Below, piece after piece: positions 28,449 through 47,165 of a stretch of 50,011 nucleotides of DNA. The translations under genes and the position numbers were made by a program. Source of the stretch: Chthoniobacterales bacterium (GTDB lineage: Bacteria > Verrucomicrobiota > Verrucomicrobiia > Chthoniobacterales > JAATET01); contig JBGTDR010000212.1 of NCBI GenBank assembly GCA_041748215.1, forward strand, positions 1 to 50,011, read 5' to 3'. Every line of letters starts with the position of its first letter. Positions within the stretch are counted from its first letter, which is position 1. The notes under the pieces are model-generated. The model did no database searches. It was not told the DNA's origin and was given only the letters and a program-made list of their open reading frames with translations.

Positions 28449-29842
28449 GCAGGTTTCCGGAAATTCAGAAACACGTTGACGCCGGTTTCATCCGCAAAAA
28501 TTTCGGGATCGGTTCCCTTGGGAGCCAGCGTCGCCATGTGGGCCTCGTCACGATAAATGAGATACCACTCGAGCAGATGCTCGATGCTGTAGCGTTCGGG
28601 ATTGTTCGGGTGGACGTTTGTGGTGACGAGATAGCCACCCGGCCGCACCCAACGGTAATACAGCTGGATTAGGTTGCGGCAGACGTTGTCCGGGAAATAG
28701 TCGAACAGACCCGCGCAATAAATCATGTCGTAAGTCGGCAGAAACCCGTCGGTCTCCTGATGCACGTCCTTGAGCAGCTCATCGATCGACTTTTGGATGA
28801 ACTTGATGACCGGTTTTCGCCCCGAGACTTCCATGGAGGCCGCAGTTCGCTCCTGGGCGTAGGCCAGCGTTTCTTTATTGAAGTCCATCAGATGGATCGC
28901 GCTCTGGCTGGACGAGTCGTGGTTTCGGATGAATCGTTGAATTTCGACCGCGGGTCCGCAGCCAATGGTGAGCACGGTGAAGATGCGTTGTTCGTCCGCA
29001 ACGCGCTCCGCTTCCGCGGAAATGAGCCGCTCCAGAATCACGATGCGATTGCGATGCGCGGCGGATGCGGCCATGTCCACCTGGAGATCATGGAAGATGC
29101 GGGCATAAGTGTTGTTACCAACGGACGGCGACTCCTTGAGCATCATGTTCACCATCTCGTAGTCGCCGGCGTAGCCGAGAGGTTTTGTGAAACACCGGTA
29201 TGCGAACGGCGCGCACAGCATGTAGGGGTGAATTTCCCGGCGCGCGAACGCCTTGTAAACCATCACCTCTTCCTGCGGCACGCGGGCGGCCTCACTTTCG
29301 AACATGGAAATCAGTGTCTGCAGTTTGCCCGCCATCGGCTGTTCGATCGACTCGCGGAACCGCGTCGCTTTCGTTTCGTCGGTATTGACGTTTCCGATGA
29401 TCGCGGTCTCGGCCTCTTCGATCCATCGGCTCGTCTCGGCAAGGAAATTGGCCATCTTGTTGACGGCGAGTTGATACGATTCGGAGAGATTGAGACCTTC
29501 CTCCCATTCGTGGATGAACCGCTCGAGTTCGCTGCCGAGCGCCGGGCCGGGCTCGAGGTGATCGAGATTATTCCACGAGTCGATCAGCGTAACGGAGACG
29601 ATCACCATCAATCCCGTAGTTACAATGCTGGTGACCACACCACGGCCGCGGTAAATGACGCGGTCGCCGCGCATGACGGTGAGTTCCTGAAGGACCTCGC
29701 TGAGCTGGACGAGCGAATAGGGATTGTAGACCTCGAAAACGGCGACGGATCGCGAGATGTGGACCAGGGTGCCGCGACCATTGATTCCCGACGTGTTCGT
29801 GAACGCGACGAGACTGTCTATTCCTGCAATTGCTTTTTCCAC
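28445..29842 (-). CDS. Class I SAM-dependent methyltransferase with N-terminal ~100-aa beta-rich (possibly PilZ-like) domain
   Basis: Motif I VLTIGCGPAVE. Post-I acidic LMDFN. Motif II/III region DMIYCAGLFDYF. The stop overlaps the hybrid kinase start by 4 nt. Confidence 0.65.
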   Translation of the reverse strand: MEKAIAGIDSLVAFTNTSGINGRGTLVHISRSVAVFEVYNPYSLVQLSEVLQELTVMRGDRVIYRGRGVVTSIVTTGLMVIVSVTLIDSWNNLDHLEPGPALGSELERFIHEWEEGLNLSESYQLAVNKMANFLAETSRWIEEAETAIIGNVNTDETKATRFRESIEQPMAGKLQTLISMFESEAARVPQEEVMVYKAFARREIHPYMLCAPFAYRCFTKPLGYAGDYEMVNMMLKESPSVGNNTYARIFHDLQVDMAASAAHRNRIVILERLISAEAERVADEQRIFTVLTIGCGPAVEIQRFIRNHDSSSQSAIHLMDFNKETLAYAQERTAASMEVSGRKPVIKFIQKSIDELLKDVHQETDGFLPTYDMIYCAGLFDYFPDNVCRNLIQLYYRWVRPGGYLVTTNVHPNNPERYSIEHLLEWYLIYRDEAHMATLAPKGTDPEIFADETGVNVFLNFRKPA

Positions 29843-32800: not shown

Positions 32801-35800
32801 TCCAAAATATTGAAGTTGTTCGATGGAAAACGGAACGAAGAGCTGGTCTCCCTCGGCGCAATAAAGCACGGGCTGCAAGGCGGCATCCATGAGCGTGGGA
32901 TGCAAGGCGTGATCCGACGCATCGAGAACGCTCGTGCCGTCGATTTCTGCGAGAAAACATTTTTGCCCGACCGTGAGTTTCTGGATCGGACGGAAAGTTG
33001 GGCCGTAGCGCAAACTCCGGGTGGCAAGGCGCTCGTACAATGCGTCGATTTCCACATCGGTGGCGCACTCAGATTTCAGCGACGCAAGATCGAGTCGGGC
33101 AACGGGAGGTTGAGTCTGCGGATTGACGCGTCCACGGCAGTGGCGCAGCCGACCCGTCTCGTCACCTTCGATGCGGCTGGAAATGGTGAAGCGGCTCTCG
33201 TCGTCACTCAATTCGGTGACGAGGTATTGAAGCTTCGTGTCATCGACGATGAGCACTTTTTCGAAGCTCACGTTTTCGAGGACGACCGCGGTTTTTTCAT
33301 GAATCCGTGCGCTCAGCGCGATGGCGGCTTCGACGTAGCCCATGCCCGCGAAGACGGTTTGATCCTGCACGCCATGATCGAAAAGAAACGGGAAGTACGC
33401 CCGGTTGATCTCGACTTCCCAGCATGGATTGGGGCTGGGCACGGAGCGATTGAGATAGACCGGACCCGGCAGGCCGAGACGGTCCATTTGGGAAGTCTCC
33501 GATTCGAGCCAGTGTTTTCGTTTCTGCCAGGGATATTGCGGACCGCGGAGAAATTGGCCGCGGTCCGGGGCGAGCGCGGTCCAGTCGAGCGTGTGACCTG
33601 CGCAATACAGTTCGCCGAGCGTGAGCATCAGTCGGGGCAGTTCGGGTTCGGCGCGGCGCAGCGAAACGAACGAAACGGCTTTCCGTTCGAGGTGGGCGGC
33701 GCATTCCTTGATCGAATTTCCCAGCACCGGGTGCGGACCCACTTCCAGCATCGTGGCGAATCCGTCGTCGAACAGAGCCTGGACGGCATCGGCGAATCGC
33801 ACGGGCTGCCGCACGTTGTGCCACCAATAATCGGCTCCCCAATCGCTGGCCGGTACGATGCGGCCATGCGCCGTGGAATAGAGCGGCATCGTGGGTTCTT
33901 TCGGAGCGAGTCCGGCCAGTGCCGCGAGCAGTTCGTCGCGAATCGGGTCCATCTGCGGGCTGTGGTACGCGACCTCGACGCGCAGGAATTTACTAAAAAT
34001 GTCGCGCTCCGTGAGCTCCGCGGCGATTTCCTCGAGCTGCGCTTTGTCGCCGGACAGCGTGACGGCCTCAAAGCTGTTGATCGCTCCAATCGAAACACCG
34101 GTGCGGTTGCCGATGGCGACGAGAGCGTCGGATTCAGCGAGGCCGACGGCGAGCATCGCGCCGAGCCCCGCGGTCGTTTGCTGGAGACGGCTCCGGTGAT
34201 AACTCACGGTGACCGCCTCCTCGAGCGTGTAAACACCCGCGACGTAAGCCGAGGCAACCTCCCCAACACTGTGTCCGATCACGGCCGAAGGGCGGATGCC
34301 GTGCGCTGCCCACCAGCGGGTCAGCGCGACCTGCAGCGCAAAATTTGCGGGCTGCGCAACTTCGGTGCACGCCATGCGCGAGGACGTTTCGTCCGCGAGC
34401 ATGGCATCCTTGAGCGACCATCCCGCGAGGCGGGTGAAGATCATGTCGATCTCGTCGATCGTGGCGGCGATGATCGGCTGGGTCCGGATGAGTTCGTGCC
34501 CCATCGCCCACCATTGCGGTCCCATTCCGGTGTAAATGAAAGCGAGTTCCGCGGCCTTGTCGGCGGGTTCCGTCGAGATCGCGACCGTGGCGTGTGGTTG
34601 TCCGGTCGAGGTAGCGATAAGCTGGTCGCGGAGTTCGTCGGGTGTGGCGGCCACGGCGGCGCAGCGCCATTCGAGGTGGCTGCGCCGATGCGCCGTCGTG
34701 TGGGCAAGGTCGGCGAACGTGCCAGGCAGCGGCTGGCCGAGTTGAAAAGCGTATTTCGCCGCGAGGTCGCGGAGCGCTTCTTCGCTGCGGGCCGAAAGCG
34801 TGATGAGCCGCGGGCGGCCGGGTTCGTCTGGTGCCGGGACGGCGACCCTGGCGGGAGCGGACTCGAGAATGACGTGGGCATTGGTGCCGCCGTAACCGAA
34901 AGAATTCACTCCGATGGTGAGCGTGGATTTTTCTGTGGCGTTCGGCAGCTTCGTCGTCTCGACCGGCACCTTCAGGCAATAATCGTCGAACGGGATCTTC
35001 GGGTTCGGTTTTTTGAAATGCAGGTTTTTCGGTACCTCGCGGGCCTGGAGTGCGCCGATGCCCTTGAGCATGCCGGCCACTCCGGCCGCCGCTTCGAGAT
35101 GACCAACGTTTGTCTTCACCGAGCCAACGACAAGTTTCCGCCCGGGATCGCGCCCCTTCGAAAAATTCACGTGCAGCGCCCGGGCCTCGGCGGGATCGCC
35201 CGCTTGCGTGCCGGTGCCATGAGCCTCGACGTAATCCACCTCGCCCGGAACCAGGTCGGAACGGCGGTAGACGTCGCGCACGAGTTCCTCCTGCGCCACG
35301 GTATTCGGCAGTGAAATGCCGTCGGTGTGGCCATCCTGATTGACGCCCGAGCCGGCAATCACGGCGTGAATCGGGTCACCGTCTGCAAGCGCGCGCACGA
35401 GCGGTTTGATCAAAAAAACTCCCGCGCCCTCGCCGCGTGCGTAGCCCGCCGCGGTTTCGTCGAACGTGTGGCACTCGCCGTGGGGGGACAGGAAGTGTCC
35501 CTTGCTCATCATGATCGGATTGTCCGGCAGCGACATCACGTTCACCCCGCCGGCGATGGCCATTTCCGATTCGCCCGAGCGCAGGCTCTGGCAAGCGCAG
35601 TGGATCGCCACGAGTGATGAGGAACACGCCGTGTCGAGGGTGAAACTCGGGCCGCGTAAATTGAAAACGTGGGAGATGCGGTTCGACAGCACCGTCATCG
35701 TCGCGCCGCCGGGCGAATGCGCGTTCAGCAAATACCGGTTCGCGGGCCGCATCTGGAGGATGAGGTGATCCAGACAAAATCCGCCGATGAAGACCCCGGT

Positions 35801-36178
35801 TGCGGAACCCGAGACGCGCTCGAGCGGCATCCCCGCATCTTCGAATGCCTCCCACGTCACCTCGAGCAACAGGCGCTGCTGCGGATCGATGCAGTTTGCC
35901 TCACGCGGTGAAATCCCGAAGGCGAGAGGATCGAAAAGCTGGATGTCAGCGTCGAGGAAGGCGGCCTTCGGCGCGTAGCTTTTTCCGGGCCGTTTGGGGT
36001 CTGCGTCGAAAAATTGGCGCACGTCCCACCGGTCGGGTTTTACGGAACGCAGCGCGTTGCCACCGCGGAGCAGAAATTTCCAGAATGCCGGGAGCGAATT
36101 TGCGTTCGGTGGCATCCGGCAACCCAGGCCGATGATCGCAAATTTATCTTCCCCGCCAGCCGTTGTGCCCATGTTCAC
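29882..36178 (-). CDS. Type I polyketide synthase, single fully reducing module KS-AT-DH-ER-KR-ACP (no TE)
   Basis: KS: DTACSSSLVA, EAHGTGTQAGDP, NVGHLEAAAG. AT: GHSVGEVASAY. DH: HALHPTLMDAALQ. ER: LIHHGTGGLGLAAIDVAK. KR: VTGGTSGFGLMSALWLASHGAGRILLASRSG. ACP: MGVDSLLVLEL. 2098 aa. Confidence 0.9.
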   Translation of the reverse strand: MNMGTTAGGEDKFAIIGLGCRMPPNANSLPAFWKFLLRGGNALRSVKPDRWDVRQFFDADPKRPGKSYAPKAAFLDADIQLFDPLAFGISPREANCIDPQQRLLLEVTWEAFEDAGMPLERVSGSATGVFIGGFCLDHLILQMRPANRYLLNAHSPGGATMTVLSNRISHVFNLRGPSFTLDTACSSSLVAIHCACQSLRSGESEMAIAGGVNVMSLPDNPIMMSKGHFLSPHGECHTFDETAAGYARGEGAGVFLIKPLVRALADGDPIHAVIAGSGVNQDGHTDGISLPNTVAQEELVRDVYRRSDLVPGEVDYVEAHGTGTQAGDPAEARALHVNFSKGRDPGRKLVVGSVKTNVGHLEAAAGVAGMLKGIGALQAREVPKNLHFKKPNPKIPFDDYCLKVPVETTKLPNATEKSTLTIGVNSFGYGGTNAHVILESAPARVAVPAPDEPGRPRLITLSARSEEALRDLAAKYAFQLGQPLPGTFADLAHTTAHRRSHLEWRCAAVAATPDELRDQLIATSTGQPHATVAISTEPADKAAELAFIYTGMGPQWWAMGHELIRTQPIIAATIDEIDMIFTRLAGWSLKDAMLADETSSRMACTEVAQPANFALQVALTRWWAAHGIRPSAVIGHSVGEVASAYVAGVYTLEEAVTVSYHRSRLQQTTAGLGAMLAVGLAESDALVAIGNRTGVSIGAINSFEAVTLSGDKAQLEEIAAELTERDIFSKFLRVEVAYHSPQMDPIRDELLAALAGLAPKEPTMPLYSTAHGRIVPASDWGADYWWHNVRQPVRFADAVQALFDDGFATMLEVGPHPVLGNSIKECAAHLERKAVSFVSLRRAEPELPRLMLTLGELYCAGHTLDWTALAPDRGQFLRGPQYPWQKRKHWLESETSQMDRLGLPGPVYLNRSVPSPNPCWEVEINRAYFPFLFDHGVQDQTVFAGMGYVEAAIALSARIHEKTAVVLENVSFEKVLIVDDTKLQYLVTELSDDESRFTISSRIEGDETGRLRHCRGRVNPQTQPPVARLDLASLKSECATDVEIDALYERLATRSLRYGPTFRPIQKLTVGQKCFLAEIDGTSVLDASDHALHPTLMDAALQPVLYCAEGDQLFVPFSIEQLQYFGRPDSAELYAFGRVVLQTETLIVADVWLLDSEGRIFAHARRISCQLIETESRQNQPGIFYQLDWNESSLNATGAVDDSRVLIVTNPQSSILTRLEEKIPGAAVVSWDHASSGMGTKSWIERLTTEEISRRDIIILECPTLPGEVTGYESLQFSNERLIGFFQALAAGRSGRSDVTIVSKSAKAVLPEDEISLDACFSAGAIGLVAQNECESLFVRSIDLPAATADTHLDQILLEIAAESRGEIALRGIRRFECVLEATAPETAAETVTTVSLETPLELRLGTKGKLESLRFEPAARTDPGTGEIEVRVHSAALNYKDLLKIYGRLHPIALENTYCGPELGMECAGVVVRCADGSRFQPGDRVAAPLKRGYRTYVTIPERFASKIPESLGMEAAAIPIVYMAAFRGLIDIAGLKQGERVLIHHGTGGLGLAAIDVAKSVGAEIFATAGSSEKQDYLRSLGIDHVYSSRDLDFGQGIREDTAHEGIDVVISAQTGQAMHVSLNLLRAGGRYIEVGKKDIAEDNGLPLAAFNRNLIFASVDVDQLTNQRPDVVEKLLARIFDGFAHGEFTLGPTQTFSAPEFHEAFSVMARSKQIGKLLVDLSHGEVSVFDKPEVDPVVAADGCYIVTGGTSGFGLMSALWLASHGAGRILLASRSGRNAPGVNEALERIAARGVDVEAISVDVTNEEQVRALVTEADAGAYRLRGILHAAMVLDDAMIEAVNETSFRRVFAPKVAGALHLAAAVADKPDLDFFLLFSSISSLIGNRGQASYVAANGVFDGLAHALRKRGLPATSVNWGALAETGVVARDERLGSVLASGGVTGLTNREALAALEVVLRLPVPQVGVFKVDWAQWNDVNPRLATDPRFKNQRILDEGRENPASAIRAELANLSKEQRLVALQLLLQEVLAEILKMSAENVPMNRKLNEMGVDSLLVLELGLGIKERLGISFSAMEFLKGPTVQQLASMSETKLWGA

Positions 36179-36393: not shown

Positions 36394-37611
36394 TTACGGT
36401 TGGGCTCCGCGGCGGATCTGCGACCCTTTGAAGCGCAGACTCATCCGGTAGACTTTTTTGATGCGGCAGTCGATTTGGCCGGTCGTGAGGTCGAAGCGGT
36501 CGGGGATTTCGATCCGATGCACGTCCACGGCAGCGTGAAATCCGCGTTCGGAAAAAACGTCGATCAACATGGCGAGCGCGAGCGGGTCGTCGAAAAGCGG
36601 ATCCTCGGAATTGACGTTGGCCTGCCCGGAAATCGCGTGACGCACAACGATCGGCATCATGCGGTCTTCGATGAAGGCGACGACGCGCTGGAGGGTTGCA
36701 GAGTGTTCGATTTCGTAGCTGTCGAGCCGTCGCACGAGGTCCTGTCGGGCGTGAAGGACGATCTTGCTGGCGACCGGCAGGCGGCGGAGTCGGGCGAACG
36801 TCCGCGGGTCGAGCTCGAGCGAGCTTTGGTATTCCAGCTCGCGAACGATGTTTTCCTGCACCAGCTCGAGCGGGGCCTGGGCGTTGATGAAGTGGTAGTG
36901 GAAGATTTCCTTGAGCGAGACGAGGGCGTCGTAGGTCTTTTCCTTGAACACGCGGTAGCGGTTGCGGGCGAGGGCCTCGCTGAGATCGGTGGGGCGTTCC
37001 TCCCACGGTTCGCCGATGCCCGAGCGCCGCACTTCTTCATTGTGTGCGATCACCTCCCGGCCGCGTTTGAGCTGCCGGGCAATGCTTTCCGTCTCGTCCA
37101 CAAAAAGCACCATGATGTGGAAGATCGGCTGTTTGAAAAACATGGCCTCCGGCGAGTCGGAAAACTGCCGGTGCAGCGCGATCATTTCGTCGTAAAGCAT
37201 CTTGAGGCATTCGACCTGGACCTTCGTGCGTGGAAAGCCGTCGAGGATCGCGCCATTCTGCTGCTCGGGTTCGAGCAATTTGCGCAGGAGAATGCCGACG
37301 ACCTCACTGTCGCCCACCATGCCTCCCTGGGCCTTGAGCTGGCGGGCCTCCGGGCTGTCCAGGAGCTGGCTCACGACGATCGGCTCAGCCGTGATGTCGC
37401 GCAGCGCGCGTATGAAATCCGTGTTGGTGCCCTTGCCCGCGCCGGGCGCACCGCCGAGCAGGATCAATTCTTTCGGGAATCGCAGCCGTTCCCGGCCGAA
37501 CTCGCTTTCGAGCTCCTTCCACACACGGTTGAAGATGAGCTGCGCGTCCTTCACCTCGAGGTCGGCGGGTGCGGGTGGACGGACGATCGATTCGGAAGTC
37601 GGGCTGGCCAA
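36394..37611 (-). CDS. Fusion protein: N-terminal adenylate kinase-like NMP-kinase domain plus ~200-aa C-terminal domain of unknown function
   Basis: P-loop LILLGGAPGAGKGT and NMP-binding ILDGFPRT both match the adenylate kinase family. The LID region is short or absent. 405 aa. It lies 74 nt downstream of the EssC-like gene. Confidence 0.6.
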   Translation of the reverse strand: MASPTSESIVRPPAPADLEVKDAQLIFNRVWKELESEFGRERLRFPKELILLGGAPGAGKGTNTDFIRALRDITAEPIVVSQLLDSPEARQLKAQGGMVGDSEVVGILLRKLLEPEQQNGAILDGFPRTKVQVECLKMLYDEMIALHRQFSDSPEAMFFKQPIFHIMVLFVDETESIARQLKRGREVIAHNEEVRRSGIGEPWEERPTDLSEALARNRYRVFKEKTYDALVSLKEIFHYHFINAQAPLELVQENIVRELEYQSSLELDPRTFARLRRLPVASKIVLHARQDLVRRLDSYEIEHSATLQRVVAFIEDRMMPIVVRHAISGQANVNSEDPLFDDPLALAMLIDVFSERGFHAAVDVHRIEIPDRFDLTTGQIDCRIKKVYRMSLRFKGSQIRRGAQP

Positions 37612-37685: not shown

Positions 37686-40600
37686 TCAACGTTTGGCCGC
37701 CGGAGCCGCCTGCCCGATCCACGCTGCGTCGGGCATGCCGTACGGCCGAAACGTTTCAAGGGTGCCGTCGTGTTCGTTGTAAAAAAGGGCGCGGTGCAGG
37801 CCGAGACCGCTGGCTTTGGGCGAATCGATCAAACTCGCGGAGTCGTTGGCGCTCATCTGGAAAATGACCCGCATTTCGAATTCACCGAGCGCTTTGCGGC
37901 TGAGGGATCGATTGACGTTGTTGAACGTGTCGACGGCCACGAGCAAATGAAGCCCGTGGCTGCTGCCTTCGTTGATCAATTCCCCGAAATGCGCTGCCGG
38001 GCTCGCCTCGGCACCCGGCTCACCGAAAGAAAAATCGAAGCTGTCTTCGCTGCGTAATTTTTTGAACCGCTGCAATCCGTGGATGAAAACAAATACCGCC
38101 GGTGCTTCGTGGACGAGCGCACCGTCTTCGCCCCGCGTGTGCAGCTCGGTGGCGAGATTTGCCATCACTCCGGGCAATTCGGACGCACCGGCAAAAACGA
38201 CGTCGTGTCCGGCGGCGTCGCGAATTGCCGCGAGGAAATCTGCTTCGACGGATCCCGGCGGATATTGGTGGAAAAAAACAAACTGCGCTGCGCCGGTCGA
38301 GTATTGCGCCGCGAGGGCAAGCAGTGCGAGCCCGAGCATCGTGAGAGTTGCGTCATCACGCTGACCCGCGATCAACAAATGATTCCCGCTCTGGCGATGG
38401 AAGATCGCTTCGGTCGGGCCTTTAATTGCGTTTGGCGCTCCCAGCCAGACGCGCGCTGCGGTGGGCTGACGCTCGGGTTCGGTGGCGAGAAGTTGGGCGA
38501 GGAGAGAATTGTCGCGCACATCGGCCGGCGCGTTTCCTTCGAACACGACGGGAGCCGCAAGCGGTTCGGTACGGCGTTCGGCAAGTGCGCGCACTTCGTC
38601 GAGGCGGGCGTCGCGTTCGTCGTCAGGCAGCCAGACGACCTGGAACGGGCTGTTGCCTTCGACCGCGCCGGCGGCGTCGTTGTAAATGCCCTCACCGGGT
38701 CGTGAGAGCAGGCGCGGCGCGGAATTGCTGTCGTCCATGATCAAATACGCGTCGGCTTCATTGCACTGGAGCGCGACACGAATGACCATTTGGCCAAGGG
38801 TTGCCCGCGCCAGCGTGAAGGCCCCGCCGAGCGTTTGTGATCCGAGCAGGACGTGAATCCCAAACGCGCGGCCCTGTCGCACGATCCGGTCGAGCAGCAC
38901 GGCCGCATTTTGCGCGATCGTGTCGTCCTCGACGAAAAATTCCTGAAATTCGTCGATGATCAGGAGCGAGCGGGGCATCGGCTCGGTGCCGCCGCCGCGC
39001 AAATACCCGGCGACATCCTGCGCGCCCGCCCGTCGGAAAAGATCACCACGCCGCCGCAGTTCTTCGTCGAGCCGCTGGAGCACGCTGAGGCCGAATTCCC
39101 GATCGCTCTCGATGGCGACCACGCGGGCGTGTGGCAGCCGTTTCTCGGCGTAACATTTAAACTCCACGCCCTTCTTAAAATCGATCAGGTAAAACTCGAC
39201 CTGCTCCGGGCTGCACCAGAGCGCAAGGTTCGTGATGATCACGTGAAAGAGCGTGGATTTTCCGGATCCGGTCTTGCCCGCAAACAGCGCGTGCTGGCGC
39301 GTGCCTTTGCCAATGGCGAGGTATTGCAGTTTTGTGGCTCCGGTGCGCCCGATGGCCACGCGCAGCTCGTTCGTCGTGATGCCGCTCCAGCATTCCCCGG
39401 GATCGGGAGCCACGCTGGCAAACGGGACCTGGACCCGGTTCGCATCGACGCTGGCGCTGCCGGTGCGTTGGACAAGTTCAAGAGCGAGCGCGGGAGTGGG
39501 TAGGGGCTGGAGCACGAGGCGCGTCCCGGGTATAAAGGACGGATCGTCCACGACGAGAGTCCCCGCTTCGCGGCGTAGAACCAGACTGCCCTTGCGCAAA
39601 TCCTCTTCCGCAAGCCCGTCCGGTAACGGCTGGCGACGGTCCCAATGGATCAGGGTGAAAACGCCGCAGCGCGGCCCGCTGGCGATGATGCTCGCCAGGC
39701 GCCGGGCGGCCGTTTCGCTGAAATGCGCCGGAAAGTCCGCGATCACGAGAAAGTGGTATTTCTCCGCCGTGCTGCCCGCGCGTTCGTTGTAGTCCGCGAT
39801 CGTTGCGTATTCGTTGCGCAAATACATCTGGATGATCTTTTCGATGTGCTCGTTCAGACCGGCGAGCCGCTCTTCGATTTGCTCGCGTTGCGTCCAGATC
39901 CGGCGGTTGATCAGGCTTTCCTCGTAGTCCGCGAGGTGCATGAGTCCGGCGAAATTTTGTCCGAGGCCGACGGGATCGATAATCGTGAAGCTCAGTTTCC
40001 CGGGTGGCGTGGTCGCGAGCAGGCGAAGAATGATCGCGTTGAGAGTGTCCGTCACGTCATGCGCGCCCGAGTCATTCGATTCGATCAAGAGCGAACCTTC
40101 GTCCGGATAACTCAGCGCGAGCGGTACCGAGATTTCTGCCGGACCGGGCAGCGCCAACCTGGGCGAGTCCTCGCGCTTAAGCGAAAATTCGAGACGCGCA
40201 AAAAATGTTGCCGGTGTGAAAAGAACGGGTGGCTGCCACGAGCCGACAAATTCCTCCGACCACGGTGGGAAGATTTCCGACGCCGATGTTTCGATTTCTG
40301 CGATGGCTCGATAGAGCGGCACGAGCTGTTTCCGCCAGTCTTCTTCGAGTGCCTGCCAGCGGAAATTCGCATCGGCCGCTAGCGTCGCGGTTGCCTCCTC
40401 CCGTGTGCGTTCAATTCCGATGCGGGCTGCATCCGCCCCCTGTCGGGTGAGCTCATCGCGAAGCTGAATTTCCGAGGCAATCCGATCAAGGCCCGCTTGA
40501 AGAATGGCGTCATTTCGAGCCGCTGCTCGCGGGACTTGAACCTCGAGTTTTTTTTCGGATGCGCGCCGAAAATCTTCCGAGACCGTGTCTGCGCGTGCGA

Positions 40601-41588
40601 GCTCCTGCGCGATTTCGGCGGCGGCACGACTGTGTTCGTGCTCGCTGCGCGCGATGTCGCGCGTGTGGGTGGTTTCTGCGGCGGTCCGGCACGCAACGGC
40701 GAGCCGGCGCGCTGCGTGAAGATGGTTGGCCACGGTCACGGCGTCCTCCCGCGAACGACGTTTTCCGATCTCGTGCAGGACGGTAAAGATCACGCTTCCC
40801 GCCAATGCTCCTCCAATCGCCACCGCCGGGTTGAGCACTTCGCTGTCGGCCAGTAGAAATGCCGCCAGTCCGATGAGTGCCCACCAGACGGGCAGGGGAA
40901 GCAGGCTGAACATCCGGGGCAGCGGGTGCGTGCGAAATTTCGCCAGAGCGGCTTCGGTCCGGGAAATTTCTCCCGCAAGTTCTCCGTAAATCCGGTTGGG
41001 TTCCCCAGCGGGACTCTCCGCTTTCTCCTCCGTCCGCAGCAGCCTCAAAAAACGCCAGCTTCCGGCGAAATATGCGCGGGCCCGACGTTCGAGTGCGGCG
41101 AGAGCACGCTCCTGGTTGGCCAGCTCCGCAAGGAAGTTTGCGAATGCCTTGTCCGCTTCATCGCGCCGGGCGGTAAGCCAGCGCCCAGCTTCAAATTCCC
41201 GCAACTGCAGCTCTCCGATCCAACGTGCGCGTTCCTCGCGCACGCGTTTCGGCAACAGGCGGATCGCCTCTTTCCGCGCGTGTTCGATGCGATCCCGGCG
41301 CGCGGCGTGTCGGTTTCGCAACTTCTCACCAGCGTCCGATAAAACGGCTTCGGAATCCACCGCGCCCGCCTCGAGCGTTTCGGTCAATTTCTCGACGGCT
41401 TCGCGATGGGTGCGCTCGATGGTTCGCTCGCGCGTCCGCAGCTCGCGAGTCAGCGTGGCCGATGCGGCATCAAATTCCGTCACGACCTCGCGCAGGCGCC
41501 GTACGAGCGCGAGTGCCCGGGACGGCCGCTGATCCACCCGATCACTCACAATCCCTCCTGATGCGGCGAAGCAGAGCGTCGAGGTCAT
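37686..41588 (-). CDS. EssC/EccC-like FtsK/SpoIIIE-family secretion ATPase (N-terminal coiled-coil, 2-TM hairpin, three tandem P-loop ATPase domains)
   Basis: TM hairpin: MFSLLPLPVWWALIGLAAFLL / AVAIGGALAGSVIFTVL. The first and third ATPase domains are degenerate (HFLVIADFP..., AAQFVFFHQYPP...VFVFIHG). The middle one is canonical: Walker A FAGKTGSGKST, Walker B LLIIDEFQEF. An alternative GTG start at ~41549 directly overlaps the upstream gene stop (GTGAGTGA). Confidence 0.8.
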   Translation of the reverse strand: MTSTLCFAASGGIVSDRVDQRPSRALALVRRLREVVTEFDAASATLTRELRTRERTIERTHREAVEKLTETLEAGAVDSEAVLSDAGEKLRNRHAARRDRIEHARKEAIRLLPKRVREERARWIGELQLREFEAGRWLTARRDEADKAFANFLAELANQERALAALERRARAYFAGSWRFLRLLRTEEKAESPAGEPNRIYGELAGEISRTEAALAKFRTHPLPRMFSLLPLPVWWALIGLAAFLLADSEVLNPAVAIGGALAGSVIFTVLHEIGKRRSREDAVTVANHLHAARRLAVACRTAAETTHTRDIARSEHEHSRAAAEIAQELARADTVSEDFRRASEKKLEVQVPRAAARNDAILQAGLDRIASEIQLRDELTRQGADAARIGIERTREEATATLAADANFRWQALEEDWRKQLVPLYRAIAEIETSASEIFPPWSEEFVGSWQPPVLFTPATFFARLEFSLKREDSPRLALPGPAEISVPLALSYPDEGSLLIESNDSGAHDVTDTLNAIILRLLATTPPGKLSFTIIDPVGLGQNFAGLMHLADYEESLINRRIWTQREQIEERLAGLNEHIEKIIQMYLRNEYATIADYNERAGSTAEKYHFLVIADFPAHFSETAARRLASIIASGPRCGVFTLIHWDRRQPLPDGLAEEDLRKGSLVLRREAGTLVVDDPSFIPGTRLVLQPLPTPALALELVQRTGSASVDANRVQVPFASVAPDPGECWSGITTNELRVAIGRTGATKLQYLAIGKGTRQHALFAGKTGSGKSTLFHVIITNLALWCSPEQVEFYLIDFKKGVEFKCYAEKRLPHARVVAIESDREFGLSVLQRLDEELRRRGDLFRRAGAQDVAGYLRGGGTEPMPRSLLIIDEFQEFFVEDDTIAQNAAVLLDRIVRQGRAFGIHVLLGSQTLGGAFTLARATLGQMVIRVALQCNEADAYLIMDDSNSAPRLLSRPGEGIYNDAAGAVEGNSPFQVVWLPDDERDARLDEVRALAERRTEPLAAPVVFEGNAPADVRDNSLLAQLLATEPERQPTAARVWLGAPNAIKGPTEAIFHRQSGNHLLIAGQRDDATLTMLGLALLALAAQYSTGAAQFVFFHQYPPGSVEADFLAAIRDAAGHDVVFAGASELPGVMANLATELHTRGEDGALVHEAPAVFVFIHGLQRFKKLRSEDSFDFSFGEPGAEASPAAHFGELINEGSSHGLHLLVAVDTFNNVNRSLSRKALGEFEMRVIFQMSANDSASLIDSPKASGLGLHRALFYNEHDGTLETFRPYGMPDAAWIGQAAPAAKR

Positions 41589-41754
41589 CCATCACTGCCG
41601 TGGTTTTGGCGAGCTGCTGAGGCAGCGCGGCCAGGTAGCGGTGTTCGAATTCCAGCGCCTTGGCATCGCGCCAGTGGACGCGCGCTTCCTGCCACTGGGC
41701 GGCGAGATCCTTGGCGGACTGCTCGAGATTCGACGCTCCGGCTTTGACGCTCAT
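41542..41754 (-). CDS. Small helical protein (70 aa), WXG100-like partner
   Basis: ATG at 41754 overlaps the stop of the 171-aa gene (ATGA). MSVKAGASNLEQSAKDLAAQWQEARVHWRDAKALEFE.... The ORF-track N-terminal extension is rejected as low-complexity Arg/Pro-rich. Confidence 0.45.
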   Translation of the reverse strand: MSVKAGASNLEQSAKDLAAQWQEARVHWRDAKALEFEHRYLAALPQQLAKTTAVMDDLDALLRRIRRDCE

Positions 41755-42266
41755 GCAGCTTCCTCCGTGTTCAATGCTGGTGTTTGCGGTGGTGGCGCGG
41801 TCTCGGCGTACTCGTCGAGGTGACGCTGCGCCTGCGCGAGAAACGTCACGGCGGACGGTAAATCCTGGTCGAGCACGTTCCGCAGGGCGTTCATTTGTTT
41901 GACGAGGGGATCGACCACGACGTCGAAGTCGCGGGTCCAGCGCCGGACCATGCGCAACTTTTCTCCGGCTTCGGCGAGTGCCCGTTTGGCATGGTGCACG
42001 GCGGCCTGCTGGGCGGTCGTGGTGTCGCGGAGTGAAGAAATGCGGGCACTCAAAAGCTCTTGCTCGGCCTGGTCGAGCGTCCGCTGCCAGCGCCGAATTT
42101 CGCCTTCCCAATACAGGCGTTGATCCGTTTGCAACCACAACCGGGTGCGCCGTGCTTCGTCCGTGGCGGCGTCGAGTGCGTGCCGCGATCGCGACAAAAA
42201 AACGATGAGATTTGCACGAAAACGTTCAAGCGCGTCCAGCGAGGTGACTCTGGCGTCGGTAGGCAT
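41751..42266 (-). CDS. Helical/coiled-coil protein (171 aa), possible LXG/targeting-factor-like T7SS accessory
   Basis: All-helical heptad-rich sequence. It sits between the WXG100-like gene (9 nt gap) and the 70-aa gene (ATGA overlap). Confidence 0.45.
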   Translation of the reverse strand: MPTDARVTSLDALERFRANLIVFLSRSRHALDAATDEARRTRLWLQTDQRLYWEGEIRRWQRTLDQAEQELLSARISSLRDTTTAQQAAVHHAKRALAEAGEKLRMVRRWTRDFDVVVDPLVKQMNALRNVLDQDLPSAVTFLAQAQRHLDEYAETAPPPQTPALNTEEAA

Positions 42267-42275
42267 TTCCGAAGG

Positions 42276-42548
42276 TCAGCGCTGATCCAGGTATTGCTCG
42301 ATGCGCTGGGCTTTGCGCAAGAGGTACGGCGTGTGTTTTTCCGAGGTCGCGACAAATTTTTTGAGGACCTTCATCGTCGCAATGAATTCCTCGGCAAATT
42401 TTTCATGTTCCTGATCCTGCCAGGTTCCGCCGAGGGCGGCGAACCGCGCCTGCAGCGACGAGCCGCGCGCCTGCAGGTCATCGTTGAACCGCTTGAGTTC
42501 GGTTGCAAATCGCCGGACTTCCTCCGGATCCATGATTGCCTGCGCCAT
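42276..42548 (-). CDS. WXG100-family (EsxA/YukE-like) small helical hairpin protein
   Basis: 90 aa. N-terminal MDPEEVRRFATELKRF and central GTWQDQEHEKFAEEF parallel B. subtilis YukE (TPEELRAMAKQY ... SMWEGASSEAFADQY), with Gly replaced by Asp. First gene of the operon ending in the EssC-like ATPase. Confidence 0.55.
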   Translation of the reverse strand: MAQAIMDPEEVRRFATELKRFNDDLQARGSSLQARFAALGGTWQDQEHEKFAEEFIATMKVLKKFVATSEKHTPYLLRKAQRIEQYLDQR

Positions 42549-42631: not shown

Positions 42632-43105
42632 TCAAAACATCGCAGCAAACAAAAACCAGCCAACCATCAGGAGTCCGATGGCCAGTTTGCCGGCAATGCC
42701 CGCGGTGGTACCGATCAGCGTTCCCCACGATGACTTGCCTGCGGGAAGGATCCCTTTCCCGCCGAGCAGTTCACCGATCAACGCTCCGATCAACGGCCCG
42801 ACGAAAATTCCGATGATGCCGAAAAACAATCCGACGATGGCACCGAGGATGCCGCCGATCGCTCCCCAGCGTGTCGCGCCAAACCACTTTGCACCCAGCG
42901 ATCCGCTCACGATATCAAGCGCCTGCGCAAGCAGCATCAGCACCAGCAGCACGCCCAGCGTCGGCCATCCCACCGCTCCCACGGTGAAATGATTCAGCAC
43001 CGCGCCCGCCAGAATCAGGATCGTTCCCGGGATCAATGGCAGGAACGTGCCCGCCAGTCCGAGTAGCATCAGCAGAAACGTGAGTGTCCACCAGACCGTG
43101 TCCAT
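42632..43105 (-). CDS. DUF456-family small membrane protein
   Basis: 157 aa, Gly-rich polytopic (GAIGGILGAIVGLFFGIIGIFVGPLIGALIGELLGG). Confidence 0.55.
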   Translation of the reverse strand: MDTVWWTLTFLLMLLGLAGTFLPLIPGTILILAGAVLNHFTVGAVGWPTLGVLLVLMLLAQALDIVSGSLGAKWFGATRWGAIGGILGAIVGLFFGIIGIFVGPLIGALIGELLGGKGILPAGKSSWGTLIGTTAGIAGKLAIGLLMVGWFLFAAMF

Positions 43106-43108
43106 CGA

Positions 43109-44299
43109 TCAGTCTGTGGCGCGCTTGCGCGGAAGATTCCGCCGTTCGGCGAGCAGGTTGAGCAGTCCAAAATAAAATCCGGCCTGAATCGTCTGCCCCC
43201 CGAGGATAAGAAGGAGCGCGGAAGAAATCACCAGTCGGATCGGCGAGACAATCGGATCGAGATCACCAAATCCCGTGCCGCCCCAATGCCGGGCTGCCGC
43301 CAGACCAAGCACCAGTCCGATTGCGACAATGCCACCGCCAAGCATGATCAATCGCTCCAGTGTGCCTTGTCTCACCAAATCTTCGAAACGTGTTCCCGAC
43401 GGGTGCAGGCGGGTTTCCACCGCGATGATCTTGGCAAAAATTGCCAGCAGGATCGCCTGGTAGCCGATGATCATGGCCGCCGACGAATAGATGAGCGTGT
43501 GGTAGTCGAGCGTTATACGTCCAATCTCGAGTTTGCCGGGCAGGAGCGCCAGCGTGACCAAACCGCCGAGGCCCATCAGGGCTAGGCCGGGCACGCCAAA
43601 AACCCATTTCGGGCTCATCAGGAGATAAAGCCGCAGGCTGCGCCAGCCGTCGCGATACGTGCGCAGGTGCGGTTTTCGATTGCGACCATCAGGCGACAGG
43701 GTGGTGGGCACCTCGGCGATTTTCACCGAGTTGAGAGTCGATTTGATGACCATCTCGATCGCAAATTCCATTCCGTCGCTCTGAAGCTGGAGGTTTTGGA
43801 TCACCGACTTTCGAAATCCGCGAAGGCCGCAATAAAAGTCGCCGCACACTTTCGTCCCGTAAAATTTCCGTCCCATCAGGCTGAGCACGGGATTGCCGAG
43901 ATACCGATGCATGAGCGGCATTGCGCCGGGTTCGATTCCGCCCAGAAAACGATTCCCCATCACGAGTTCCGCCCCGTCGCGAAGTTTTTCGACGAACGGG
44001 TGCAGCGCGGAAAAATCGTAGCTGTCGTCGCAATCACCCATGATTACGAAGGGAGCTTTCGCCGCATGGATGCCTTCCCTCAGCGCCGCTCCGTACCCAC
44101 GAGTGGCGACGGGCACAACGCGCGCGCCCAGTTCCTCGGCGATCTGGATCGAACCGTCCGTGCTTCCGTTGTCCGCGACAATGACCTCGCCCGCGACTCC
44201 ATATTTTTCAAGGTAGCCCAATGCCTTGCGGATGCAGATGGGAAGTGTGCGTGCCTCGTTCAGACAAGGCATGACGATGGAAAGTTCGAGATCGGCCAT
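43109..44299 (-). CDS. GT2 glycosyltransferase with C-terminal membrane anchor (polyprenol-phosphate sugar transferase, ArnC/GtrB-like)
   Basis: LSIVMPCLNEA, DNGSTDGS and the DxD motif in MGDCDDSYD. Four C-terminal TM helices. Confidence 0.8.
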   Translation of the reverse strand: MADLELSIVMPCLNEARTLPICIRKALGYLEKYGVAGEVIVADNGSTDGSIQIAEELGARVVPVATRGYGAALREGIHAAKAPFVIMGDCDDSYDFSALHPFVEKLRDGAELVMGNRFLGGIEPGAMPLMHRYLGNPVLSLMGRKFYGTKVCGDFYCGLRGFRKSVIQNLQLQSDGMEFAIEMVIKSTLNSVKIAEVPTTLSPDGRNRKPHLRTYRDGWRSLRLYLLMSPKWVFGVPGLALMGLGGLVTLALLPGKLEIGRITLDYHTLIYSSAAMIIGYQAILLAIFAKIIAVETRLHPSGTRFEDLVRQGTLERLIMLGGGIVAIGLVLGLAAARHWGGTGFGDLDPIVSPIRLVISSALLLILGGQTIQAGFYFGLLNLLAERRNLPRKRATD

Positions 44300-44302
44300 G
44301 GG

Positions 44303-46234
44303 TCAGCGGGAAGCGGGATTTTGGGGGGCGGAAATGAAAACGACGCAACCGGCGCGCGGGACCAGCACCACTTCCGCGGAACGCATCCTCGACATGATGT
44401 TTTGGTTTTCGCCGACGCGGGATTCCGGATCCACAAAGCGGTAATAAAACGCCATCCACATGTCGCGCGCCTGATTGAATTTCAAGCCGCGAAATACCGG
44501 CATCTCCCAGAACTGATCGGCGACGTTGCCGCGTGCGGCCGCGGACGCGGTCAGCGAGCGGTCCAGCGAACGTTGGGCGAAGTCCGGCAAAGGAACGATG
44601 GTGGGAGTCGGCAGGCTGCGGCGCGCAAGGTCGGTGACCGCGAGGTGCTTCCACAACGCGTCACCAAGCTCATCTCCGGCGGGAGAATCAAGATCAATGC
44701 CGGCTGCTTCCGCATCTTCGTCGAGCAACGCGCGGTCGATCATTGGGAGATCCATCTGGGACTCGATGAAGACGACGGGTGCCGGGTGGTTTTCAGAAAA
44801 ATCGCGCCGCACCGGAGCCACGCTCTGGACGGGCAGACCGAGGTAATATGTCCAGACGAGGTGGTTGTTGGGCGTCGCGTAGAAACGCGTGCCGGGCGGA
44901 AAGGAGCGTTCGTTAAATACGCCAGCCATCGAAGCAATCATGGTCGGCTGGTGAACCAATGCGTTGATGGACCGCGCTCCAAGGAATCCGATGCGGTGAT
45001 TGCTCTGGAGGAAGACGACCACGACGATGACGGCCAGCGCGGGAGCCCAGCGAATCGAAACCGCTCGCAGCGCGTCCGCCAGAAACAACGCTGCCAGCAA
45101 CACAAACGGCGTCCACAAAACCAGCGTCAGCCGTTCGTAAAAGAAACTCGCCGCCGGCACGACGAAGTGAAACGCCGTGTAGCCCACGGCCAGCCAGCCC
45201 AGCAGAAACACGTAAAGCAATCGGTGGTCGAGGAATCCCTGGCGGAAACGCGCCGGCAGCCAATGTGCGCCGGCGACGACCGCGACGATCAGCGCCCCAA
45301 AAATGAGCGGTTCACGGCGCTGCAGCAGGTAATAGACCCAGTCCCCGGCGGATTCGAAAACCGACCGTGCTTTCGGGACGGCCGCGGCGGTTTCAAAAAA
45401 TCCACTCAGCCAAACCCACGGCAGGATCAGTGCCGCAGCAATGCCCGCGGCGAGGAGCGAGCGCGGCAGCCAGCCACTGCGCCGTATAATGAGCGGGGCC
45501 GCCAGCAGCGAGGTGATCGCAAAGACGAGCGCCGAAAACTGATGGGTGTGAAACAGCAGTCCTTCCGCAACACCCAGAGCGACAAAGGATTTCCAACTTC
45601 CGTGCCGGACGACGTGCCACAGCGCCAGCGCGACAACGACCGAAAGAAACAGCGTGAGCGAATAATACCGCGCCTGGTAGCCGAACAATTCGGCTCGCGC
45701 ACTCAGCGCGGTCAGCGCCAGCGTTGCAAGGCCGGCGGGTGTGCCGCCCAATCGGCAACCGAGCACGAAGGTTGCGATCATCGTGCCGAGTGAAAACAGG
45801 AGCGCGGGAATGCGCGGCACGATGGTGCGAAGCGGGGCGTCGGCCGCGCCGTGAAGCACACGTGGAGGATCGGTTGCACGGTCGGGTTCCATTCCAAACA
45901 GCCACTGAGACGCGGCGATGGCGTAAAGCGGCAGCCAGCCGTGGTAAACCGCGACGCCCTTCGATGAATAACTGCTGTCGCGGAATTCGTATTCCGGATG
46001 GTCCGGCCAGGGTTCGGTGAGCGTGTTTTCGTAAATCGGCAGGCCGAGGTATTCGCTCACCGGCACGCCGTGATCCAGGATCGTGAGCGCATTGATGCTC
46101 GATTCGGCTTCGTCCACCCAGAGCGTTCCGCCCACGAGTGAGATGCGCAAAGTCATACCGACGACGATGAGCATCGCCGCCGCAGCCAGTGCCAGCCATT
46201 TGCTTCCGACGGACGACTCGGAGACGTCCGTCAT
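44303..46234 (-). CDS. GT-C fold glycosyltransferase, ArnT/PMT-like (GT39/GT83 family) polytopic membrane protein
   Basis: First-loop DE motif TLWVDEAESS. ~11 TM helices with a large C-terminal soluble domain. It sits adjacent to, and 3 nt downstream of, a polyprenol-P sugar GT2, the canonical ArnC/ArnT-like pairing. Confidence 0.65.
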   Translation of the reverse strand: MTDVSESSVGSKWLALAAAAMLIVVGMTLRISLVGGTLWVDEAESSINALTILDHGVPVSEYLGLPIYENTLTEPWPDHPEYEFRDSSYSSKGVAVYHGWLPLYAIAASQWLFGMEPDRATDPPRVLHGAADAPLRTIVPRIPALLFSLGTMIATFVLGCRLGGTPAGLATLALTALSARAELFGYQARYYSLTLFLSVVVALALWHVVRHGSWKSFVALGVAEGLLFHTHQFSALVFAITSLLAAPLIIRRSGWLPRSLLAAGIAAALILPWVWLSGFFETAAAVPKARSVFESAGDWVYYLLQRREPLIFGALIVAVVAGAHWLPARFRQGFLDHRLLYVFLLGWLAVGYTAFHFVVPAASFFYERLTLVLWTPFVLLAALFLADALRAVSIRWAPALAVIVVVVFLQSNHRIGFLGARSINALVHQPTMIASMAGVFNERSFPPGTRFYATPNNHLVWTYYLGLPVQSVAPVRRDFSENHPAPVVFIESQMDLPMIDRALLDEDAEAAGIDLDSPAGDELGDALWKHLAVTDLARRSLPTPTIVPLPDFAQRSLDRSLTASAAARGNVADQFWEMPVFRGLKFNQARDMWMAFYYRFVDPESRVGENQNIMSRMRSAEVVLVPRAGCVVFISAPQNPASR

Positions 46235-47019
46235 TATTCGACCGAACGCACCGTGAATCCGCCGGACTTTTCGTCGGCGTCGAGTTTCAGGATCCCCTGT
46301 CTTTCCGCCTCCTTGAGCAGGTCGTTGAAGGACCGGAAACCGTGAGCTCGTTCGTTAAATCCAGGGTTGCGACGTTTGAGCGCTTGTTTGACCGCGGAAC
46401 CCCAGATTTTGTCGTCCTCGCCACGTTCGTCCTCAAGCGCCTCCAACGTGTCGGCGACCTGGTCGAGCGCCTGCTGCAGGGTGGGCCCGTCGCTCGGCGG
46501 GCGGGGCGCGGTGTCTTCGGTTTTCGGTTCGGCCCGGCGGCGCGGTGCGGCATTTTTCCGCTGAGGTTTTTCGCGAACGAGATCGTCGTAATAGACGAAC
46601 TGGTCGCAGTTATTGATGAAAAGATCCGAGCTGGAATTTTTCACCCCGACGCCGACGACCGTCTTGGCGTTTTCGCGGAGTTTGCTCACGAGTGGAGAAA
46701 AATCCGAATCGCCGCTCAGGATCACGAATGTGTCCAGATGCTGCTTCGTGTAGCATAGGTCCAAAGCGTCCACGACCATGCGAATGTCGGCGGAATTTTT
46801 CCCGGACTGGCGCACGTGGGGGATTTCGATCAACTCGAACGCCGCCTCGTGCAGGTCGCGTTTGAATTCTTTGTAACGGTCGAAATCGCAGTATGCCTTT
46901 TTGACGACGATGTGCCCGCGGAGGAGCAGGCGCTCAAGCACGAGCTGGATTTCGAAGCGCGGGAATCGCGCGTCTTTCGCGCCGAGGGCGATATTTTCAA
47001 GGTCGAGAAAGACGGCCAT
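46234..47019 (-). CDS. NYN-domain (LabA-like) protein with C-terminal OST-HTH/LOTUS domain
   Basis: ATG at 47019 gives MAVFLDLENIALGA... (NYN start pattern). ILSGDSDFSPLV matches the NYN catalytic region. The C-terminal WGSAVKQALKRRNPGFNERAHGFRSFNDLLKEAERQGILKL matches LOTUS. The stop overlaps the downstream ArnT-like start by 1 nt. Confidence 0.65.
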   Translation of the reverse strand: MAVFLDLENIALGAKDARFPRFEIQLVLERLLLRGHIVVKKAYCDFDRYKEFKRDLHEAAFELIEIPHVRQSGKNSADIRMVVDALDLCYTKQHLDTFVILSGDSDFSPLVSKLRENAKTVVGVGVKNSSSDLFINNCDQFVYYDDLVREKPQRKNAAPRRRAEPKTEDTAPRPPSDGPTLQQALDQVADTLEALEDERGEDDKIWGSAVKQALKRRNPGFNERAHGFRSFNDLLKEAERQGILKLDADEKSGGFTVRSVE

Positions 47020-47165
47020 CGTCGCGTCACTCGTCGCTTCCGGTTTGCTCATCAGGTGGAGCAAATCACATTCGTCCTCCGTCAGCGACCCTTTCACGCG
47101 AAGATTCCTCACACCCGGCGCATTCCGGCTTCCCGTTTCCGGCGGACCCGTGGCAGGTTGCCGCC

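Follow-up and report, generated by a model that had tools for sequence, protein, structure and literature searches.

Zhang et al. (2012) described a three-domain, YueA-like FtsK ATPase together with a solo WXG protein as one of the mobile versions of the T7SS (type VII secretion system), with Verrucomicrobia among the carriers (PMC3482391, Table 1 note 6). Further examples are HP0062/HP0066 of Helicobacter pylori (PMC3397514, PMC4978471) and a TerY-P cluster on Caballeronia pSBC2-5. WXG100 proteins occur in Verrucomicrobia according to Sutcliffe (2011) as quoted by PMC6471051. A recent survey of T7SS variants covers Bacillota and Actinomycetota only (PMC11217815). Here we describe a cassette of this kind in a stretch of 50,011 nucleotides (nt) from a Chthoniobacterales bacterium (Verrucomicrobiota; assembly GCA_041748215.1, contig JBGTDR010000212.1, positions 1 to 50,011 of the forward strand), subsequently referred to as the window. 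The cassette occupies positions 37686-42548 on the minus strand and encodes three small proteins of 90, 171 and 70 amino acids (aa), which we call WXG90, p171 and p70, followed by a large membrane-anchored ATPase.

We consider it reasonably likely that this locus is a verrucomicrobial, chromosomal representative of the "solo WXG + distinct YueA-like three-domain FtsK ATPase" module, that is, a pared-down relative of the T7SS that works in export. The original prediction, made from this DNA alone, had seen in it the minimal FtsK/SpoIIIE plus WXG100 core of a T7SS. Homology supports such a T7SS-like reading, and no outcome that had been named as speaking against the prediction was encountered, but the idea was already on record (PMC3482391), and since the kind had been reported for Verrucomicrobia as well, the cassette type is not new. 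Three of its features appear to be undescribed: an extension at the ATPase N-terminus, about 440 aa long and with a transmembrane (TM) hairpin, that the four relatives examined by us lack; the two fixed partner families p171 and p70; and the existence of a phylum-wide, context-independent and highly conserved cassette (82% in the WXG protein), which sits uneasily with the label "mobile". A literature search found no experimental work on this cassette family and no account of p171, p70 or the membrane anchor.

All four open reading frames (ORFs) are on the minus strand, arranged head to tail at the predicted positions: WXG90 (42276-42548), p171 (41751-42266), p70 (41542-41754, with its ATG internal to a longer ORF) and the ATPase (37686-41549, 1287 aa when read from a GTG codon). 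Read directly in the DNA, the stop codon of p171 and the start codon of p70 share the sequence ATGA, and the stop codon of p70 falls within GTGAGTGA, where it overlaps the ATPase gene. The predicted coupling of the 171- and 70-aa genes and the GTG embedded in GTGAGTGA could thus both be seen. The 4-nt overlap between p171 and p70 is kept in 57 of 66 loci. The ATPase ORF itself extends to a first ATG at 41588 (37686-41588, 1300 aa). However, the GTG at 41549 is the most likely start of translation, because an AGGAGG is located 4 nt 5' of it, the p70/ATPase junction TGTGA(G/A)TA(A/G) is common to the homologues, the alignment of the ATPase family starts only at this position, and two independent gene callers returned the 1287-aa protein. 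Residue numbers of the ATPase given below are those of the 1300-aa ORF; subtracting 13 converts them to the 1287-aa protein. WXG90, p171, p70 and the ATPase form one translationally coupled, conserved operon.

A scan for promoters and terminators gave no signal above shuffled controls. Among 71 loci for which the 150 nt upstream of the WXG gene were compared, 11-13 carry a word resembling TTTGCGATAGTG; the top count reached by any 8-mer in the shuffled controls was 5. This word may be a clade-specific promoter or operator.

The ATPase begins with an R/A/E/L-rich region that is helical and cytoplasmic (residues 14-225, 40914-41549); it has a column identity of about 40% and no Pfam domain. This region is followed by a predicted hairpin of two TM helices (residues 229-247 and 254-272, 40773-40904) with Kyte-Doolittle 19-mer peaks of 2.10 and 1.67. 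The two helices are joined by an acidic loop of 6 residues and both outer flanks are basic; the topology is therefore N-in/C-in, and the predicted hairpin anchors the ATPase in the cytoplasmic membrane. At least two hydrophobic segments are present in 70 of 77 ATPase orthologues. A linker (residues 273-449, 40242-40772) leads from the hairpin to the ATPase domains; it is A/R/E-rich and little conserved, and its composition suggests a helical or coiled-coil structure. Altogether, the first 450 or so residues of the ATPase are poorly conserved among homologues, whereas residues 450-1300 are well conserved.

This conserved part consists of three domains. The middle one, D1 (residues 729-1005, 38574-39404), is the sole catalytically intact FtsK/SpoIIIE domain (PF01580 at residues 746-918). 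It alone carries a Walker A motif (G771-KTGSGKS-T779, nt 39252-39278) and a Walker B motif (D879-E880), the Walker residues are invariant among homologues, and D1 is the most conserved stretch of the protein with 82-95% column identity. D2 (residues 1006-1300, 37689-38573) is a degenerate FtsK-like domain in which GQRDDA stands in place of the Walker A motif and IHGLQ in place of Walker B. Its homology to D1 is clear from hhalign (95% probability, E = 3.6e-8, 202 columns); it has no sequence match in the PDB and takes an alpha/beta fold in the AlphaFold2 model. By likeness to D3 of EccC, D2 is a candidate for the substrate-docking domain. The first domain, D0 (residues 450-728, 39405-40241), is P-loop-like but degenerate and has no Walker A motif; we regard it as the signature domain of the family. 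Sequence comparison showed no significant similarity of D0 to D1, D2 or any PDB chain. D0 was recognized by AlphaFold2 and Foldseek: the model of residues 450-1300, built from 10 sequences only (predicted local distance difference test, pLDDT, 75.7), contains three alpha/beta domains, and the order of strands and helices in D0 appears to resemble that in D1 and D2. The prediction of three P-loop domains with only the middle one canonical is thus borne out, with D2 related to D1 in sequence and D0 by fold only.

The active domain is closest to EccC/EssC and not to FtsK or TcpA, judging from the sequence scores. The ATPase matched PF01580 with 108.9 bits. Against NCBIfam it scored 116 bits with EccCa, 89 with EccCb and 79 with EssC, all far under the cut-offs of these models, and 22 bits with the FtsK model NF007615, for which the cut-off is 1566. 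PDB matches were ordered in the same way (EccC, E = 2e-29; TcpA, 8e-10; FtsK, 3e-7) and included YukB. With Foldseek, the three-domain model aligned over its full length to the three ATPase domains of Thermomonospora curvata EccC (4nh0, E = 3.5e-29, about 900-940 columns), followed by two-domain fragments of EccC/EssC and then by FtsK (about 1e-10) and TcpA (about 1e-8). The architecture assigned in the original prediction, that of EssC/EccC, therefore holds for the TM hairpin and the EccC-like active domain; it does not hold for the number of nucleotide-binding domains. EccC/EssC proteins have four of them (DUF, D1, D2 and D3; PMC11217815), and only three fit between residue 450 and the C-terminus of our ATPase.

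WXG90 is a member of the WXG100 family. It matched Pfam PF06013 with 39.1 bits (cut-off 27.3); with NCBIfam TIGR03930 it scored 27.3, under the cut-off of 44.85. The best PDB match of the family profile was HP0062 (3fx7, E = 4.7e-10), and the relatives found there include EsxB (3e-7) and EsxA. Orthologues of 90 aa are annotated by NCBI/JGI as "WXG100 family type VII secretion target" or YukE. The turn signature that had been noticed in the sequence (W-x-D/G..E..F) is present as W43-Q-D45 followed by E47 and F51, which makes WXG90 a W-x-D type, HP0062-like protein. Among 71 sequences, W43 and D45 are invariant; HP0062 likewise has WRD at the turn (PMC3397514). WXG90 shares 69-89% identity with its orthologues. 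Its mean column identity of 82% compares with 54% for the ATPase alignment, 52% for p70 and 38% for p171, and WXG90 is as strongly conserved as the catalytic domain of the ATPase. When proteins were searched with the WXG profile, nearly identical sequences from Verrucomicrobiota filled the results, and distant relatives did not show up.

We noticed a tyrosine 3-5 residues from the C-terminus that is kept in W-x-D WXG proteins of five phyla (the window and the plasmid loci L083-L086 described below), the ends being ...EEYLNQR, ...RDYLQS, ...RTYGGI, ...DQYLGR and ...RRYLHGG. In p171, too, a tyrosine at the end of the second helix (Tyr153) is invariant. Such a tyrosine may be a recognition signal specific to this family.

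The two other small proteins had been proposed as WXG100-like too. Of the three, WXG90 alone is demonstrably a WXG100 protein; p70 is weakly WXG-like, and p171 is a helical hairpin without significant similarity to WXG100. The predicted hairpin fold of p171 is confident: the AlphaFold2 model (56-sequence alignment, pLDDT 87.4) shows a long antiparallel two-helix hairpin, with helices at 9-77 and 80-155, and a disordered tail. p171 belongs to no Pfam or NCBIfam family and has no sequence relative in the PDB, where the sole return of the profile search, a prolyl-hydroxylase helix, was spurious. In Pfam, its members produced only scattered coiled-coil matches, among them weak ones to YscO (7 of 74) and FliJ (5 of 74), and a Foldseek search with the model found generic coiled coils only, none at E <= 1e-3. 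p171 is present in 73 of 81 loci, and orthologues share 36-58% identity with it.

p70 is a probable shortened WXG-like protein. Its alignment contains the invariant residues W21, W28, D30, F36 and C69 at 30-57% identity, and a W-R-D-A-K-x-x-E-F-E stretch is in register with the WXG turn. In hhalign, p70 gave P = 0.06 against the verrucomicrobial WXG profile and, once WXG proteins of four other phyla had been added to diversify the profile, P = 5e-4 in the register W-x-D...F-E. A hidden Markov model (HMM) of p70 scored 17.5 bits on the Caballeronia WXG protein. The top PDB match of p70 was Staphylococcus aureus EsxA (E = 0.41, not significant), and the Pfam WXG100 model weakly touched 4 of 73 p70 members.

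To describe the distribution of the cassette, we use a genome scan that gave at least 384 matches in species-representative genomes, from which 80 related loci (L numbers in the text) were retained. Nearly all of these are from Verrucomicrobiota, namely Chthoniobacterales, Verrucomicrobiales, Pedosphaerales/Limisphaerales (subdivision 3) and Methylacidiphilales, with cultured carriers among them, such as Verrucomicrobium sp. BvORR106 (L012) and Spartobacteria bacterium LR76 (L018). The relatives' ATPases are 46-58% identical to that of the window. About 70 of the 74 loci with upstream sequence have the order WXG-p171-p70-ATPase on one strand. Since this four-gene order recurs in some 70 other genomes, it is not a chance pattern of ORFs. 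The exceptions are L004, without WXG and p171, L017 and L080, without WXG only, and L056, without any small gene. In L056 (7240-13945), the 10 kb upstream of the orthologous ATPase gene contain no copy of the small genes; the gene is preceded by ORFs whose translations read as a histidine-kinase-like protein and an NtrC-like (sigma-54-type) regulator. An insertion between p70 and the ATPase in L032 was considered as a cargo gene and rejected, because the inserted gene is unrelated and runs on the opposite strand.

A search of 1.84 billion cluster representatives with D0 alone retrieved 2346 at E <= 1e-3, of which 907 were at E <= 1e-30; the top 150 were mostly proteins of about 1300 aa with D0 at about 440-730. 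A few metagenome-assembled genomes with the cassette carry other names: Bacteroidetes (L020), Limnocylindrales (L037), Acidiferrales (L046), Bifidobacteriaceae (L052), Sulfopaludibacter (L058), Klebsiella (L061), Aquilonibacter (L074) and Acidoferrum (L075). When clustered, the majority of these cassettes fall within verrucomicrobial groups, and the bins are therefore probably mislabelled or contaminated.

The flanks vary from genome to genome. When all flanking ORFs of at least 100 aa were clustered, families outside the cassette reached about 5 of 81 loci at most; the cassette is self-contained. In the window it is flanked by genes for a polyketide synthase, an adenylate-kinase-like protein, a GT2 glycosyltransferase and a DUF456 protein, in L081 by LpxC/FabZ, LpxA and ImuB/DnaE2. 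The unusual neighbours that had been pointed out around the window's cassette (polyketide synthase, adenylate kinase, GT-C/GT2) are thus incidental, as they are not kept elsewhere. No mobility genes recur, the ATPase clusters roughly track the subdivisions of the phylum, and PurL, pyruvate kinase and Lnt, all of them chromosomal housekeeping genes, lie in the window. The lipid A genes LpxC and LpxA beside the cassette in L081, together with Lnt in the window, identify the host as diderm, which answers the question, raised with the original prediction, of whether it is monoderm or diderm. The membrane partners of known T7SS, which had been reported missing nearby (EssA, EssB, EsaA, EccB/D/E, MycP), are indeed not among the Pfam-scanned flanking genes of the window, and none recurs in the 80 related loci.

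Compared with T7SSb (EssC/YukB, EsxA/YukE), the cassette shares a single WXG100 gene encoded with the ATPase and an ATPase with a cytoplasmic N-terminus, two TM helices and tandem FtsK-like domains, and its active domain matches YukB and, at 78.9 bits, the EssC model. Within T7SSb, EsxA is one of the core components that the system requires (PMC11217815). The cassette differs from T7SSb in having three ATPase domains instead of four, a helical R/A/E/L-rich N-terminus in which Pfam found no FHA domain, a W-x-D instead of a W-x-G turn and a diderm host; EssA, EssB/YukC, EsaA/YueB and EsaB/YukD were not found near it. T7SSa/ESX systems provide the best matches in sequence and fold, through EccC, and likewise encode small helical-hairpin proteins with the ATPase; by this analogy, p70 and WXG90 could parallel an Esx heterodimer. 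In contrast to ESX, EccB, EccD, EccE and MycP are absent from the flanking genes, the ATPase has one domain fewer, and a long cytoplasmic extension precedes its TM helices.

The systems of Zhang et al. and HP0062/HP0066 are the closest. They have the same D0-D1-D2 plan with D1 alone intact, a W-x-D WXG protein with a tyrosine near the C-terminus, and a WXG gene that adjoins the ATPase gene. The verrucomicrobial cassette differs from these relatives by the additional N-terminal stretch (about 440 aa) that contains the TM hairpin, by p171 and p70 as fixed partners, and by the absence of toxin-immunity, TerY, kinase, phosphatase and TerD neighbours. It is also chromosomal, of fixed content in at least four orders, and not visibly mobile.

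If the locus is such an export module, it might work as follows. By analogy with EccC/EssC, the ATPase would form a hexamer at the membrane, powered by D1. The degenerate D0 and D2 would regulate assembly and dock the helical-hairpin proteins, either as a WXG90 homodimer (as in HP0062) or as complexes of WXG90 with p70 and p171, and these would be driven over the cytoplasmic membrane into the periplasm. WXG90 is as conserved as the catalytic domain and the cassette contains no toxin or immunity gene; a fixed structural component or co-factor is therefore more likely than a fast-evolving effector. Together with the fixed gene content, the slow evolution of WXG90 argues for a housekeeping function in the envelope and not for a weapon. 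A more far-reaching version holds that the cassette is a vertically inherited, self-sufficient minimal T7SS of housekeeping type, in which one membrane-anchored three-domain ATPase, without EssB- or EccB-E-type partners, moves WXG90, p70 and p171 as a fixed complex over the inner membrane of a diderm cell, for an envelope function. We find this version doubtful; if true, it would be the simplest working T7SS-like translocon and would offer a view of the origin of the T7SS.

Relatives outside Verrucomicrobiota were sought among plasmids with tblastn and with HMMs from verrucomicrobial D0, D1, D2 and WXG alignments. No plasmid carries at least 80% of the ATPase. The matches run from D0 through D1 or D2, and there are two WXG90 homologues in addition. 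On Caballeronia pSBC2-5, a TerY-P triad cluster (PMC4978471), the genes encode a VWA protein, a WXG protein (44% identical to that of the window), proteins of 436, 113 and 76 aa and the ATPase (927 aa), followed by CARF, VWA, PP2C and Ser/Thr kinase proteins; the sequence of the 436-aa protein reads as a helical N-terminus with a nuclease-like C-terminus. A plasmid of Helicobacter sp. carries a WXG gene followed by genes for an HNH endonuclease, an SMI1/KNR4 protein (immunity-type), a 77-aa protein and the ATPase (823 aa). The Rhodococcus plasmid encodes the ATPase (1322 aa), proteins of 314 and 73 aa and a WXG protein (87 aa) beside TerD genes. On the Deinococcus plasmid, a 142-aa helical protein with a C-terminal TM helix and the ATPase (947 aa) are followed by two WXG-like proteins, a 326-aa coiled-coil protein and a 144-aa p70-like protein. 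All four kinds of HMM matched the plasmid proteins clearly. The D0 HMM scored 98.4 bits in Rhodococcus, 94.8 in Caballeronia, 56.9 in Deinococcus and 28.0 in Helicobacter, and the WXG HMM 78.8 bits on the Caballeronia and 48.9 on the Helicobacter plasmid protein. The WXG gene is always on the same strand as the ATPase gene, upstream of it in Caballeronia and Helicobacter and downstream in Rhodococcus and Deinococcus.

Orthologues of p171 and p70 were not detected in these four loci, except for the weak p70-like match in Deinococcus. The 76- and 77-aa genes that occupy the position of p70 in Caballeronia and Helicobacter were tried as its orthologues and dropped for lack of similarity. The N-terminus of the Rhodococcus ATPase (L085 4480-8448, 1322 aa) reads as TerD-like. 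In Deinococcus, the 142-aa protein (L086 5147-5575) is encoded directly upstream of an ATPase without TM segment and could be a separate membrane anchor.

Several observations weigh against export by the verrucomicrobial cassette. The ATPases of the four relatives have no hydrophobic segment outside the ATPase folds, and the relatives are found in TerY/TerD or toxin-immunity neighbourhoods; secretion was thus not necessarily the ancestral role. In the diderm host, no outer-membrane conduit or extra inner-membrane partner is linked to the cassette, and it is uncertain whether the twelve TM helices of a hexamer would make a channel. Inspection of the C-termini of WXG90 (...HTPYLLRKAQRIEQYLDQR) and p70 (...RRIRRDCE) did not reveal the YxxxD/E export signal of ESX substrates, and an invariant Asp takes the place of the glycine in W-x-G. 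The link between p70 and WXG is weak in hhalign, and that between p171 and WXG is not significant by profile comparison. For any member of the ATPase-WXG family, export is something that we infer by analogy.

Many of these points would fit a membrane-tethered, ATP-driven machine that acts inside the cell, in stress sensing, remodelling of helical assemblies or conflict and defence, with the WXG-like proteins as adaptors or regulators instead of cargo. The relatives with the D0-D1-D2 plan and a W-x-D WXG protein have no TM segment, and they are embedded in TerY-kinase-phosphatase, CARF or TerD clusters. The lack of further membrane partners in Verrucomicrobiota, the conservation of WXG90 at the level of a core subunit and the fact that only the 6-residue loop of the ATPase is predicted outside the cytoplasm point the same way. 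However, the verrucomicrobial ATPase does have a hairpin with the N-in/C-in topology of EccC/EssC, and the HNH toxin and SMI1/KNR4 protein between WXG and ATPase in Helicobacter are typical of exported polymorphic toxin systems (PMC3482391). PADLOC found nothing beyond the generic FtsK domain, with no match among the small proteins. An origin in defence or phages was rejected on the same grounds, as PADLOC and PHROGs both matched that generic domain only. Overall, we think an intracellular machine unlikely.

A T7SS-like system for interbacterial toxin delivery, with p171 as the exported effector or its carrier, is very improbable. It could draw on the Caballeronia and Helicobacter loci, which hold a nuclease with a helical N-terminus between the WXG gene and the small gene, in Helicobacter along with an annotated immunity protein. 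The long hairpin of p171 presumably also recalls, if loosely, the targeting domains of LXG type. However, p171 consists entirely of the hairpin and a short disordered tail and has no toxin domain, there is no immunity gene, and the content of the cassette is invariant across orders and not polymorphic. Pfam LXG, Lap and DUF3130 had no matches in the small proteins. We also considered p171 as a targeting domain that has lost its toxin, which is unsupported: the comparison of its HMM with the N-termini of the Helicobacter HNH and the Caballeronia nuclease-like proteins was not significant.

It is extremely unlikely that the ATPase is a DNA translocase of the FtsK, SpoIIIE, TraB or TcpA type for segregation or conjugation: its domain belongs to PF01580 and it matched FtsK-like families of PHROGs, but Pfam found no FtsK gamma DNA-binding domain, the protein has three tandem domains, one active and two degenerate, instead of a single motor domain, EccC/EssC are ahead of FtsK by 60-90 bits, the gene is, apart from the exceptions given above, always encoded with a WXG100 protein, neither relaxase, integrase nor mating-pair genes recur in the flanks, and the plasmid matches stay below 80% of its length. 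We keep to a pared-down, exporting relative of the T7SS as the preferred account of the cassette.

Some other genes of the window are also described here. Just downstream of the ATPase gene, at 36394-37611 on the minus strand, lies a gene for a 405-aa protein. The N-terminus of this protein has an adenylate-kinase-like P-loop (PF00406, residues 54-144) and its C-terminal half (about 220 aa) belongs to no family; the gene does not accompany the cassette in other genomes. Upstream of the cassette (42632-47112, minus strand), we find genes for a DUF456 protein (157 aa), a GT2 with a TM C-terminal domain (396 aa), a 643-aa protein without Pfam match (the "GT-C" of the original prediction) and an NYN-domain protein (292 aa), with identical gene calls in an independent assembly. 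The minus-strand ORF at 29882-36178 (2098 aa) shows polyketide-synthase-like domain motifs in its translation. After it come a methyltransferase-domain protein (28445-29842) and a run of response regulators and histidine kinases (22382-28448). At 14335-19503, long ORFs of 1057 aa (minus strand) and 1689 aa (plus strand) overlap; neither the 1057-aa ORF nor the adjacent 576-aa ORF has a Pfam match, and the coding strand is ambiguous.

Research on the T7SS treats the system as a Gram-positive machine. The cassette described here is a very widespread diderm relative made of only four genes. With cultured carriers at hand, this small set is tractable for the question of whether an EssC-like ATPase and WXG proteins are enough for translocation, as well as for the roles of the degenerate ATPase domains and of a conserved WXG100 protein that is not an effector. 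Such work would also assign a function to two unannotated families (171 and 70 aa), both of which are abundant in metagenomes from soil and freshwater. Demonstrated export by the four-gene set would give the finding greater weight.

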